In this document: piece by piece, positions 1,401-15,054 of the stretch
Numbering within the stretch: position 1 is the first letter of the stretch
Layout of the letters: every line of letters starts with the position of its first letter
Source of the DNA: Octopus vulgaris
Lineage: Eukaryota
Direction of reading: 5' to 3'
NCBI GenBank assembly: GCA_951406725.2
Contig: OX597814.1
Coordinates: 152,830,001 to 152,894,000, forward strand
Length of the DNA stretch: 64,000 nucleotides
Position numbers and translations under genes: made by a program
Notes under the pieces: generated by a model
Told to the model about the DNA's origin: nothing
Database searches by the model: none
What the model saw: the letters and a program-made list of their open reading frames with translations, nothing else

Positions 1401-1512
1401 ATGGCACCAAACAGTATATTCCGGCCAAACCTTTTCAAACATAAAGTAGCAATTGTTACCGGTGGTGCTACTGGACTAGGTTTAGCAATCACAACGGAAC
1501 TATTGCATTTAG
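1401..1512 (+). CDS. PECR: PECR-like SDR, first coding exon copy A ([38 protein letters not shown])
   Basis: ATG at 1401, Rossmann motif [12 protein letters not shown], phase-1 donor G|GTATGG at 1512/1513 compatible with exon 2. Whether it is actually used is unproven. Confidence 0.7.
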
Positions 1513-1740
1513 GTATGGATTTTAGAGAGGTGTTTTCACATTGGGTTTTATTATTGTCAGTACGGTGTTATGAGTAATTTCTTGCTGTTTTTTACCTTCT
1601 AGTTTTTATCCCCCTCCCTTTTTTTATTGATTTCAGTCATTGGAACGTGATTACGCTGGAGCGTTACCTTCAAATTATTTATTTAGTATTTTATTCAGTA
1701 TTTGACCTTGGCATAGTTTCGGTTATTGTGTGCGAAGAGA

Positions 1741-2346
1741 CAGACATACATATACACATACACCGAGTACATACATACATACACACACACACATACATAG
1801 ATACATACACACACACACATACATACATACACACACATACTTACACACACACACACACACACATAGATACATACACACACATACATGCAGACATACATAT
1901 ACACATACACCGAGTAAAAAATTACACTGAATCGACCATACATACATACACACATACATACATACACACACACATACATAGATACATACACACACACACA
2001 TACATACACACATACACACACACACACATACATACACACACACACATACATACATACATACACATACACACATACATAGATACATACACACACACACATA
2101 CATACATACACACACACACACACACACACACATACACACACACACATACATACACATACACACATACATAGATACATACACACACACACATACATGCAGA
2201 CATACATATACACATACACCGAGTAAAAAATTACGATGAATCGGCCATACATACATACACACACACATACTTACACACACACACATACATAGATACATGC
2301 ATACATACATATACACATACATGCATACATACATATACACATACAC
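1741..2346. repeat. Compound (CA)n/(CATA)n microsatellite with recurring CACATACACCGAGTA spacer
   Basis: Visible in sequence; source of the HT/VCMY ORFs. Confidence 0.95.
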
Positions 2347-3593
2347 CGAATAAAAAATCAGTTATCTCTCTTTCACACATTACTCTCTCTGTCTCTTCAC
2401 ACACACTAACAGAAGCACTTCACTTACACAACATACTGTCTGTCTCCCACACCCCATCAAACACACACAGGCCGATTTCAAAGTGAAACCTTCTCGTCAT
2501 AAAATCGCTTCCTCTTAGTCTCTTTCGCTCTCATTACTTATGTAAAAAAATAAAAGTTTTTTACGGAAATCGACGGAAATCTGCGCTACGACATGCGAAA
2601 CTTCGCCATATCGTATATACTCGGTTATAAGTTGCACTTTACTCCCCTGAAATTTTCACCTTAAGTTGGGGGTGCGACTTATACTTGGAATAACCAAAAA
2701 GGATAAAGTATTACATTATAAACAATGGTTTCTAAAGTGCTGGACTGGGGCTAATGCAATTTCGCACCTCTCCTTAAAAAATGCATTTTTTGAATAACTT
2801 TTTTCGAATTCCTACGTTTTAGATGTCGAAAAAGCAAAAAAAAAAAAAAAGATTAACCCCCAACCCTAACCCTTACACCTTAACCCCGTAAAGTTCTTTT
2901 CTTTTTTATATATATGTGGGGTTAGGGTTAGGGGAAAAGGGTTCCTTTTTTCTTCAGAAATGTAAATAAACCCACGGTACTTGTACCGAAAGATCGCCGT
3001 CAATTTTTTTGCAGGTTCGTATTCTCCAAAGCCGAAAACGGGGGTTTGTGTAGAGAAAAAAATTAAATAAAAAAGGGGTGTTTTTAGGGGGAGGATACAA
3101 AAGGAAGTCTTGCTGTCGCCACATTTAGTTGACAAATATATTTTATGAATAAATGGACAGGGAATAAATAGATAGACAGACAAATAAATAGATAGATGAA
3201 AAAAACTTCAGAATTTAAAATTAGAGGAGGGGTGAAATTTGAGCCTCTTTTTAAACTTTGGTATTCCTTCGTTTTGACTCGATTTTTGTAAACATACTTC
3301 TCGGTAATTTCCGTGAACACGTGTTGTCTTGTCAACAGTCAGTTGACAAAATATGAAGAGAAAGCTAATGGGTTGTATGTGCGTGGATTGTTCCCCTGTC
3401 TATGTGTACGTGCTTGTTCTTTGTGTGTGTGTGTGTGCATGGATGCGTGCTTACACGGAGGAACAAGCATGCACACACAAAGAACAAGCACGTACACACA
3501 GAGGAACAAGCACGCATGCACACACACACAGGGGAACAAGCATGTATACACAGACATTGGAACAAGCACACAGGCACGTACAACCTATTAGCT

Positions 3594-4337
3594 TAGTGAA
3601 CGTGACCTGGGTGTTATTGTCGACAGTGATTTGCGTTGGACAAAACACATCGCTAAAATTGTCAAGAAGGCTGAGGGTGTCTTGGCATCACTCACCAAAT
3701 CCTTTGTGAGCCGCTCTCCGGCTATCTATCTCCGGCTTTATATAGCTATGGTAAGACCTCACCTGGAATTTGCATCACCGGTCTGGAACCCCTATCTTGC
3801 CCAGGATATCAATCGTCTGGAAGCTGTTCAGCGACGTGCAACCAAAAGAATACCCTCCATCAGGCATTTACCATATCCTGAACGCCTTACTTCCCTGGGC
3901 ATGGACACATTGAAACTCCGACGTCTGGCAGCTGACTTGGCAGACTCACATAAAATTATCAACCATCGCACAAACAATAACTCTGAGCACCTTTTCAAAC
4001 TCCACCCATCTAACACCCGTGGACATATTTACAAAGTCAGAAAACAGCACAGCTCCCATGACTTCAGGAAACATTTTTTCACGCTGAGAGTTGCTGAAGC
4101 GTGGAACAAACTGCCGGCATCGGTTGTTAGTTGTCGGAGCACTGCATCCTTCAAGACTTCCATGCTTCCTGAGATTCGCCAACACTACACTTGATTTTCT
4201 CCCCTCCATACACACACAAGCATGTATCTGACTCATACATTGTTCACTTTCCAGACATTTCTACATTACTGTATGCACTTTCTGACAAGTTGTGGTGCAC
4301 CTGTGCACTGTATACAATTAATTTCATTATTATTATT
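3594..4337 (+). mobile_element. CR1-clade LINE, 5'-truncated 3' end
   Basis: ORF 3631..4194 with VRPHLEFASPVWNP, LEAVQRRATKRI, TRGH, FFTLRVAEAWNKLP; (TTA)n tail. Confidence 0.9.
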
Positions 4338-12149: not shown

Positions 12150-12460
12150 GCATGAGCATTTGGAGGACATGATAAAATAGAAGAATCAAATAATAAAGAT
12201 AATTTTCTGACTATATGTGAAGCAGCAGCGGAATTCAATGGTTGTTTAAGATCGCATCTAGATTCCATGGGGAAAAATTCCAATTGCACATTTTCTGGAT
12301 TTTCAAGTGATAATTCAAAACGAGATCATTAATTGTATAGCTGCTACAATTGAAGGTTAGATTTAGGCAATGATCAAAAACAACAACAACAGTATTTGTT
12401 GCTGTTAAGTTTGATGAAATTACAGATCTTCAAATGAAATCTCAAGTGTTATGTGTTTTT
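12150..12460 (+). mobile_element. Degenerate hAT (Tip100/ZMYM1-like) transposase fragment
   Basis: Hand translation across frameshifts: AFGGHDKIEESNNKDNFL ... IQNEIINCIA ... FVAVKFDEITDLQMKSQV. Confidence 0.6.
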
Positions 12461-13739
12461 TAGGTGTGTGTGTGTAAAGCGATTGTTTTCAGGATTCTTA
12501 GCCAGGGATCAAAACCTTGTTCTCAATTTTTCCGTAAGCTCCTTTCCATTTTTCCTTTTCTTGGCAGTCATACTTGGAATTTTATGAAAGTCAGCTGCCA
12601 TACTTTGACAAGTTTTATTGTTTCCTGAACATCATCATCGTTTAACGTCCGCTTTCCATGCTAGCATGGGTTGGACGATTTTGACTGAGGGCTGGCGAAC
12701 CAGATGGCTGCACCAGGCTCCAATCTTGATCTGGCAGAGTTTCTACAGCTGGATGCCCTTCCTAACGCCAACCACTCCGAGAGTGTGGTGGAGTGGAGTG
12801 AACATCTTAGGCTAAATTCAGTTCAACGGAGATAAACGCGTTCACATCCAGCTTTGGAACTTGTATAAATACAGAATCCTCAGCTTTCGAATATATATAA
12901 ATAAATACAGAACACAAAATCGAATTCTTTGCCTTTTACCCAGCACCTTACCAAAGGAGCATGCCTGCTCCGAATATTTTAGGATAGCATGTCTTTCTCT
13001 TTCTAGCGCTCCTATATTTTCCTTGTCTCTACATCTGGTACAAACGTTACCAAAATTGTGCAAGCCTTGTTGTTACTAGCATCTTCTGCTACTATAAAAT
13101 AGCAGACTGTTACAGCCTTTGTATACTGTTGCTAAGGATGAACTGATGGATAAATAAAGTCCGTAACAAATAACTTTTTCTCTATTGATTCATTTGGTGT
13201 CCCACAAAGTTTAAACAATCTGTTAATACTCATAACCACTGCATTCATTGCATCATCATTATATAGATGTTTCTCTCTCTCTGTCTGTCTCTGTCTCTCT
13301 CTCTCTCACACACACACAAAAGTATATATGTGCATACTGTGATGGACCAGCGTCCTATTCAGGATGGGATGTAATATATACACTACAGGATTCGGGAAAC
13401 CAGCTGTATGAGCCTATGCACTAATAGGGGCACTCTGACCCAGGCAGCACTTTTAAAGGGGCACCACTTTTGGGTCTGCTGTGTTTTTTGTATGGTCCGG
13501 TGGGTGGGGGGTGGCAAACGGAAGGGTCACTCCGGGCAACACACACTCTAGCTACGCTAGTGAGCCTATGACTTTGGTAGGACCTTTGATCTTTATTTTT
13601 TACATACATGTTCTAAATTCTGAAATATCCATGGACTTTAGAATGGAACACTGCAGGTATATTTAAGTACTGTATCTGTGGATGTACATAGAACACACAC
13701 ACATACACATACAGACATATAGGTATGTATATATATATG

Positions 13740-14080
13740 TTCTTTTTTGTTTCAGTCATTTGACTGCGGCCATGCTGGAGCACCGCTTTTAGTTGAACAA
13801 ATCGACTCCAGGACTTATTCTTTGTAAGTCCAGTCCAGTCCTTAATCTATTGGTCTCTTTTGCCAAACTTCTAAGATATGGTTGTCAAGTGACGGTGGGG
13901 AGACAAACGTTTACATATTATATATATACGACGGGCTTCTTTCAGTTTCCATCTCACAAGGTTTTGGTCGGCCTGAAGCTATAGTAGAAGACGCTTGCCC
14001 AAGGTGTCCCGCAGTGAGACTGAAACCAGGACCATGTGGTTGGTAAGCAAGCTATTTACCACACAATCACTCCTGCGCCT
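13740..14080 (-). mobile_element. SINE family 2 (tRNA-derived head, CCTTGGGCAAGTGTCTT core)
   Basis: Matches other copies at about 22873-23302, 25118-25530, 34815-35215, 48700-49085, 51970-52360, 56960-57382. Confidence 0.75.
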
Positions 14081-14942
14081 ATAACCCACTCCTGCACCTC
14101 CCTCTCTCTCTCTCTCTCTCTCTCTCTCTCTCTATATATATATATATATATATATATATATATATATATATATATATATATATATATATATATATATATA
14201 TATATATATATATATATATATATATATATATTAGGGAGCATAACTCCAAACTTACAGGGAAAAATCCAATTTAGTATTAAATCAAATTTCACAATATAAA
14301 TATATAATTTATATAAATTATAGAAAAACCACTATTATGTATTTCAAACTTATCATATAATGTTTATTCATTATTATGTACTTTTTGTGATCTAGATATA
14401 TGTTTTGTAATATAGCGGGTTTATGATCTAAGTCTGAGAAACGTAAGCGATCGGTTTTGGAAAAGAAAAAAATGTTTAGAATTCTAACCTCTGTATATCT
14501 TAAACGAGGAGTCTCTCTCTCTCAAACGAAAAAAAGGGGATCATATGGTAGAGATGAAATCAAACATGCTTCATTTCAAAATTTCACAAAGCTCTTCTGT
14601 TTTATTTATTTATTTTTTATTTATCTGTCTATTTTTAAAATCGTAAACTTTATGGTTCAAAACATTGAGAACAGTTGAAGAAAAAGAAAAACCATAGCAA
14701 AAAAAAAATAATTGTGGTCTGTGTCTATATTGTCGAATAGTGTTAATATTTCTAATCCTTTTCAGCACTTTTCTATACATATGTACGTATACACGTGTAA
14801 ATAGAGCATAACCAAACTTCTGACATCGATCTTATTTATTATAGATTACATAAAACACCCACCTATCAAAATATAATTTAAAGCTGAACTGAGTAGCTAA
14901 ATCTAAACAGTTATTAAATACGGTAAATATTCAAATGTCAAG

Positions 14943-15054
14943 ATGGAACCAAAAAGTATATTCCGGCCAAACCTTTACCAAAATAAAGTAGCAATTGTTA
15001 CCGGTGGTGCTACTGGAATAGGTTCAGCAATCACAACAGAACTATTGCGTTTAG
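14943..15054 (+). CDS. PECR: PECR-like SDR, first coding exon copy B ([38 protein letters not shown])
   Basis: ATG in strong context (aagATGG), TGGATGIG motif, phase-1 donor G|GTATGA at 15054/15055; nearest first exon to exon 2. Confidence 0.88.

Follow-up and report, generated by a model that had tools for sequence, protein, structure and literature searches.

The single Octopus vulgaris gene for peroxisomal trans-2-enoyl-CoA reductase (PECR), a presumably NADPH-dependent enzyme of fat metabolism, has two alternative first coding exons, 1a and 1b, and splicing joins either of them to a shared exon 2. The reading we favor, with a probability of roughly two in three, is a tandem duplication of exon 1 and about 150 nt of flank, with separate start sites that are used differently from sample to sample and with near-equivalent enzymes as products.

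Duplicated First Exons of PECR

Within the window (the whole 64,000-nt stretch of DNA analyzed here), exon 1a occupies positions 1401–1512 and exon 1b positions 14943–15054, both on the forward strand. The initial annotation had described two intact 112-nt exons about 13.5 kb apart, each with an ATG start and a phase-1 GT donor, and all of this was borne out. Each exon is stop-free and encodes residues 1–37 plus 1 nt, and the two are identical at 103/112 nt (an 8% difference). A search of the whole genome with exon 1 and its flank returned these two matches; no further copy of exon 1 was found genome-wide or in the 60 kb upstream.

Homology extends beyond the exons on the upstream side. The flanks at 1243–1400 (exon 1a) and 14797–14942 (exon 1b), both on the forward strand and presumably a duplicated proximal promoter and 5′ UTR, are alignable over ∼150 nt; over 120 nt, their local alignment reached a score of 64, and none of 1,000 shuffles exceeded 43. 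They differ at 34/110 aligned sites (31%). At its far end, the 1a flank runs into the terminal part of a high-copy repeat, with repeat matches up to ∼1296. Homology into the intron had also been claimed, but here local alignment found only ∼16 nt. Beyond position +6 of the intron, similarity was no better than that of shuffled sequence (987 of 1,000 shuffles reached the score), and a long intronic homology is not supported.

The spacer between the two copies (1513–14796) consists of repeats and retroelement remnants and lacks PECR exons 2–8. That exons 2–7 have no copy between 1a and 1b had been noted before, and our tblastn search of 1513–14942 with PECR residues 39–295 agreed, giving a best E value of only 0.063. 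The shared exons lie downstream on the forward strand: exon 2 at 18148–18281, with an AG preceding its start; exon 3 at 18917–19082, which has one genome-wide match; and exons 4–7 at 49195–49276, 50640–50736, 58751–58855, and 62144–62255. The gene has eight exons rather than the seven previously counted, the last one lying ∼570 nt past the window end and closing with SKL, which we take to be the C-terminal peroxisomal targeting tripeptide.

Exons 1a and 1b stand before the only PECR gene body in the genome. The nine pieces in which the full PECR protein matched the genome all lie here; the remaining matches were three distant short-chain dehydrogenases/reductases (SDRs) at 23–29% identity. No second PECR gene body was found in 1513–14942, in the 60 kb upstream, in the 20 kb downstream, or genome-wide. 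The octopus protein matches SDR Pfam families and resembles PECR over its full length; its best match among solved structures is human PECR (1YXM; E 3.4e-106, residues 5–277). With PECR the octopus protein shares the SDR fold and the C-terminal SKL; the two alternative homologous N-termini set it apart.

Both First Exons Are Transcribed

We examined contigs from 8 of 24 runs: X1, X5, X7, and X16 were compared with exon 1a and X12, X13, X21, and X22 with exon 1b. Runs X10, X11, and X14 (share 0.18) and X2–4, X6, X8, X9, X15, X17–20, X23, and X24 were left out of the evidence. The comparison used assembled contigs, in which start sites, strand, and expression levels are not visible, rather than raw reads. 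The run type "RNA" is a guessed label, none of the listed runs being registered as RNA, and tissues are coded; the spliced joins in the contigs argue for RNA.

The initial annotation's central proposal, that either exon joins exon 2 at position 18148, was confirmed. For 1a, the junction was present in contigs of three of the four runs compared (X5, X7, and X16, from three studies). The 1,560-nt contig of X5 and the 1,539-nt contig of X7 matched from 1397/1398 to 1513 without a difference and continued with exon-2 letters, and the X16 contig had the same junction. Run X1 contained 1a solely as an unspliced 162-nt piece at a depth of 3.3. For 1b, runs X21 and X22, from two studies, each yielded a 1,607-nt contig that matched 14921–15055 with no differences and thus carries exact 1b; the exon-2 letters that follow were read in the X22 contig only.

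Contigs of X12 and X13 had the 5′ half of 1b followed by four other letters. The two that were read, at 15018 and 15025, were both the 1a letters, making these contigs 1b/1a mosaics. Exon 1 contains a 35-nt run that is identical in the two copies, and exactly four of the differences lie 3′ of it. A mosaic of this composition should have a 1a word share of 0.178; the value listed for both X12 and X13 is 0.18. Mosaics of this kind are as expected when 1a and 1b are expressed together; alternatively, they could be real converted alleles. Runs differed within studies as well, with 1a in X5 vs. a mosaic in X12 (study P2) and a mosaic in X13 vs. 1b in X21 (study P5). At 85%, X1, X5, X7, and X16 yielded no 1b-like contig; at 82%, X21 and X22 yielded no contig with the full 1a. 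Contigs show presence only and lose minor forms, and these results do not amount to absence.

The 5′ starts of the contigs fell at ∼1397 for 1a and at 14883 or 14921 for 1b, which is consistent with alternative promoters but not proof of them. Position 14921 precedes the 1b start codon by 22 nt and is also where contigs of X21 and X22 are joined to a 29-nt 5′ piece that is the end of a MITE. In the X13 contig, too, a 29-nt 5′ piece is joined here, with its letters unread. The piece has 176 dispersed matches in the genome, and the element that carries it is 720–930 bp long; of the 10 copies we inspected, 9 have inverted ends. Two other readings of the 29-nt piece, a spliced leader and an untranslated exon farther upstream, were considered and rejected: it is absent from the window and dispersed in the genome, a GT follows it in 0 of 10 copies, and no AG acceptor precedes 14921.

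A Matching Pair of Annotated Isoforms in Octopus bimaculoides

RefSeq lists two PECR isoforms in O. bimaculoides, X1 (XP_014769609.1) and X2 (XP_014769608.1), which, as annotated in the database, differ in residues 1–37 only and share an identical body. Exon 1b resembles isoform X1, and exon 1a encodes exactly the N-terminus found in P0122 and P0124. Between the species, 4 (1a) and 5 (1b) of the 37 residues differ, compared with 8 between the exons within each species. Parsimony gave 14 steps for orthology of the exons vs. 15 and 16 for the alternatives; in a weak tree of 37 columns, the 1b pair had a support of 88/89 (unstarred), and site 12 conflicts with orthology. Since the same pair is annotated in O. 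bimaculoides, the duplication likely predates the split of the two species. The event looks young, being seen only in Octopus. Among cephalopods, our protein searches returned the Octopus cluster and, besides it, a single Argonauta protein. In the clusters seen, the entries for O. vulgaris and O. sinensis have the 1a form only, and isoform 1b appears to be unannotated there.

Consequences for the Protein

Eight of the 37 residues differ between the isoforms, and eight of the nine nucleotide differences are nonsynonymous. The changes fall in the N-terminal arm (residues 1–15) and the helix (residues 25–36). The initial annotation had expected a different first Rossmann strand and helix; the helix does differ, but the strand (residues 16–20) and the glycine loop do not, as residues 15–25 are identical. 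Silent sites of the exons diverge at 1/28.5, compared with 34/110 sites of the upstream flank (Fisher P = 0.0014), and gene conversion has likely kept the silent sites of the two exons alike.

In the favored reading, the first coding exon and its flank would have been duplicated in tandem before a single gene body, each copy would be driven by its own promoter from its own start site, and the choice between them would vary likely by tissue or stage. The gain would be mainly regulatory, because the strand, the glycine loop, the catalytic part, and the C-terminal SKL are common to both enzymes.

A different emphasis, which we consider unlikely, makes the exons a functional N-terminal cassette in which residues of the arm and first helix alter oligomer stability, cofactor affinity, or turnover, while conversion erases silent differences and selection keeps those that change amino acids. 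The excess of amino acid changes and the low silent divergence fit such a cassette, as does the exon-specific identity of residues 4 and 14 (partly also 2, 13, and 26) in both species. Residue 26 is Leu in 1a and Val in O. bimaculoides isoform X2, but Ile in 170 of 174 homologues. However, pN did not differ significantly from pS between the exons (P = 0.44), most of the differing positions also vary among homologues, the strand and loop are identical, and positions 12, 28, and 36 do not keep exon-specific residues across the two species. Since nearly all changes alter amino acids and 1a departs from the usual Ile26, the isoforms might still differ in function. A bolder version, to which we give little credence, is a young two-exon switch under concerted evolution, with conversion evening out silent sites, selection keeping arm and helix residues, two biochemically distinct peroxisomal reductases as products, and a polymorphic MITE now rewiring which isoform dominates. 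If true, the locus would show a variable-first-exon system at an early evolutionary stage.

Less probable still is that lineage or allele, rather than tissue, sets exon use, so that animals of organism label A, with the MITE upstream of 1b, express mostly 1b and those of label B mostly 1a. Pure 1b contigs, which bear the MITE end, came solely from label A (X21 and X22) and pure spliced 1a contigs solely from label B, and the MITE end is missing at 14921 both from this assembly and from the X12 contig. Several runs speak against such a division: the 3′ half of the X13 contig (label A) shows 1a letters despite the 29-nt piece, 1a sequence occurs in X1 (also label A), and 1b is transcribed in X12 (label B), where the MITE is missing. 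Both isoforms are, moreover, annotated in O. bimaculoides.

Neutral redundancy seems to us very improbable. Under it, both exons would be transcribed because both flanks still work, and the duplicate would persist through drift and conversion while serving neither regulation nor protein function. The tiny difference between isoforms, the likely conversion, and changes peculiar to 1b (Ser28 and Arg36) would suit it. Against it, two species that differ at 23/258 residues of the shared exons each have two intact, isoform-like copies, and exon 1 has changed to a similar extent in both copies, while the upstream flanks differ by 31%. An artefact, an orphan exon, or a hidden second gene can be dismissed. 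The only point in favor is that assemblies in general may contain haplotype duplications, and a check for each of the three found none. Exons 1a and 1b differ by 8% and their flanks by 31%, the junction contigs already refute such explanations by showing each copy transcribed and spliced to exon 2, there is one gene body, and the same pair is annotated in O. bimaculoides.

Discussion

The octopus PECR gene is a case of N-terminal substitution by tandem exon duplication. In the human data of two reports, such events number 39 (PMC8373072) and 40 (PMC9741552), with GCNT2 and KCNAB1 as examples. As in that class, homologous 5′ coding exons are duplicated, one or the other is joined to shared downstream exons, and the N-termini are homologous; unlike it, the octopus case is in a cephalopod and in an SDR. 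We found no PECR, DHRS, HSD17B, RDH, or DECR entries in the human table of these substitutions. Most human events are traced to early vertebrates, in contrast to the apparently young octopus event. Our literature searches found no published description of a duplicated first exon at PECR.

The initial annotation had likened the locus to UGT1 and the protocadherins, and the likeness holds for the layout only, a variable first exon followed by constant exons. UGT1A and clustered protocadherin loci have 9, 15, and 21 variable 5′ exons (PMC8373072), whereas octopus PECR has two exons rather than an array, each encoding 37 residues rather than forming a large variable exon. In UGT1A and the protocadherins, the variable exon sets specificity; the octopus segment (arm, strand, loop, and helix) is small and shows no sign of such a role, and its strand and loop are identical in the two isoforms. 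Octopus PECR belongs to the catalogued class and is not a diversity cassette on the scale of UGT1.

The finding is a new example of a known gene design and opens no new mechanism. Duplicated alternative first coding exons gain an invertebrate example that is validated and seemingly unpublished, and its enzyme family does not occur in the human catalogue we searched. The finding suggests that annotations in the O. vulgaris group miss an expressed PECR isoform. It also serves as a warning that short-read assemblies can merge two similar exons into mosaics. With two active copies and an apparently recent origin, the locus offers a small test case for how exon pairs are maintained through promoter divergence, gene conversion, and transposon insertion.

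Two first exons and one gene body

The octopus PECR gene (peroxisomal trans-2-enoyl-CoA reductase, an SDR) has a pair of duplicated first coding exons that contig evidence establishes as real and expressed. Exons 1a (1401–1512) and 1b (14943–15054), both on the forward strand, are each 112 nt long with an ATG, an open frame, and a phase 1 GT donor, as the initial annotation described. They are identical at 103 of 112 nt, and the nine differences from 1a to 1b comprise A2E, N4K, F12Y, K13Q, H14N, L26I, L28S, H36R, and one silent change. Homology continues upstream for ∼150 nt (score over 120 nt of 64, with none of 1000 shuffles exceeding 43) and into the intron for only ∼16 nt, with similarity at chance level past +6; of the flank homology proposed on both sides, only the upstream part held. 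An out-of-frame ATG at 14935, 8 nt 5′ of the 1b start codon and without a counterpart upstream of 1a, could damp translation of 1b.

Exons 2–7 span 18148–62255, every one bounded by AG...GT, and exon 8, just beyond the window end, closes the protein with SKL. The absence of an exon 2–7 copy noted between the first exons was borne out by tblastn, which returned no copy of exons 2–8 there (best E 0.063). Genome-wide, exon 1 has two matches and exon 3 one; the whole protein aligns here in nine pieces and elsewhere only with three distant SDRs. Exon 1 was duplicated with its upstream flank ahead of one gene body, and both junctions are present.

Transcript evidence

We checked 8 of 24 listed sequencing runs, all as assembled contigs whose RNA status is presumed. 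Either first exon is joined to the common exon 2, as had been suggested: contigs of 1560 nt (X5) and 1539 nt (X7) match 1397/1398–1513 with 0 differences before continuing into exon-2 letters, a junction also found in X16, and 1607-nt contigs of X21 and X22 match 14921–15055 with 0 differences, with exon-2 letters visible in X22 and the 3′ loose end of X21 outside those shown. X1 holds just an unspliced 162-nt piece of 1a at depth 3.3. Depth in X16 over 1483–1513 hints at a minor second continuation 3′ of the 1a donor.

Contigs of X12 and X13 carry 1b in their 5′ half, followed by four other letters, of which the two visible (at 15018 and 15025) are 1a letters. The part of the exon 3′ of a 35-nt identical run contains exactly four of the differences, and the share of 1a query words expected in a 1b/1a mosaic is 0.178 (listed share, 0.18). 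We infer that these mosaics are graph-simplification products of samples expressing both exons; alternatively, they represent a converted allele. The pattern varies between runs of one study (X5 vs. X12 in P2; X13 vs. X21 in P5), which points to sample-dependent exon use. A tissue-specific choice is harder to argue, since tissues are coded and pure spliced 1a occurs under organism label B only, pure 1b under label A only.

Mobile elements

The X21 and X22 contigs, both label A, open with 29 letters absent from the window and with at least 176 genome matches. In nine of 10 copies examined, these letters end a MITE-like element of 720–930 bp with termini GGC...GCC and ∼220-bp inverted ends; four of the nine show an 8-bp target duplication. 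The end is joined at 14920/14921, 22 nt 5′ of the 1b ATG, where the X13 contig also has a 29-nt piece of unseen letters. Its absence from the assembly (and from X12) makes a polymorphic insertion or a difference between lineages likely, the simplest reading being an insertion allele in label-A animals. Family copies lie 200 nt past exon 1a within the intron (1710–2607) and at loci L005–L013 outside the window.

A high-copy repeat family, plentiful in transcript contigs, occupies 787–1296, 8333–8853, 8853–9430, and 19124–19518; the first two form an inverted pair, 96% identical, and one copy stops ∼105 nt before the 1a ATG. The spacer between 1a and 1b also contains a second retroelement fragment (3592–4191, forward strand). 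A broken element at 4619–7544 (reverse strand), with endonuclease and reverse-transcriptase-like frames, is one that we take from its motifs to be LINE-like. Between 1b and exon 2, a decayed transposase-like stretch (16990–17460) with an acidic N terminus may be of piggyBac type.

Evolution and conservation of the pair

Silent divergence between 1a and 1b (1/28.5 sites) is low against that of the flank (34/110 aligned sites; Fisher P = 0.0014), which suggests gene conversion within the exon; alternatively, the silent sites are constrained. Amino acid changes between the copies show no significant excess (P = 0.44). Of 203 homologues, 174 could be anchored by the glycine motif, and 170 of these have Ile at position 26, which makes 1a the unusual copy at that site. 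At position 12, 147 of 172 have Phe and none has Tyr; the remaining varying positions are mixed.

The RefSeq isoforms X1 and X2 of Octopus bimaculoides, known here from database annotation alone, differ at 8 of their first 37 residues and are identical thereafter. Across species, isoform X2 and 1a differ by four changes and isoform X1 and 1b by five, vs. eight within each species. Orthology takes 14 parsimony steps and the alternatives 15 and 16; a likelihood tree of five rows, none dropped, groups 1b with isoform X1 (88/89, under the star level) and leaves the 1a pair unresolved. Divergence over the shared exons (23 of 258 residues) is similar in rate to that of exon 1. Argonauta contributed one protein among the results, with mixed states. 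The pair is probably conserved across Octopus. A third annotated O. bimaculoides N terminus (isoform X3, P0123) is short, nonhomologous, and without the glycine loop, and it has no tblastn match in the window or neighboring loci.

Consequences for the enzyme

The protein with 1a matches entry P0122, labeled Octopus vulgaris, and its exon 1 part also matches an O. sinensis entry. Pfam assigns octopus PECR to SDR families, and the closest solved structure is human PECR (1YXM; E 3.4e-106). In a predicted model (mean pLDDT 87.1), exon 1 forms an arm (1–15), a strand (16–20), the glycine loop, and a helix (25–36). The arm carries five of the differences and the helix the other three, with residues 15–25 identical; the variable first strand and helix once envisaged thus reduce to the helix. 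Shared exons would encode the catalytic residues, the basic residue downstream of strand 2 that selects the cofactor, and the targeting tripeptide, so a specificity cassette is less likely than a pair of near-equivalent isoforms.

PMC8373072 defines tandem exon duplication-derived substitutions, 39 of them N-terminal and made by alternative promoters (GCNT2 and KCNAB1 among the examples), and assigns the clusters of UGT1A and protocadherin to this mechanism as well; PMC9741552 counts 40 N-terminal cases. One supplementary table of PMC8373072 has no PECR, DHRS, HSD17B, RDH, or DECR entry. We found no published description of the octopus pair in a search whose scope excluded most subscription journals and other supplements. 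As far as the class is described there, octopus PECR shows both of its structural features. The UGT1/protocadherin design first proposed applies in its variable first exon and common exons; unlike those clusters, PECR has neither a many-exon array nor a large variable domain. The pair is a further case of this already known N-terminal exon-duplication class. Each copy would have a separate promoter, the choice between 1a and 1b would depend on the sample, and the role of the pair may be mainly regulatory.
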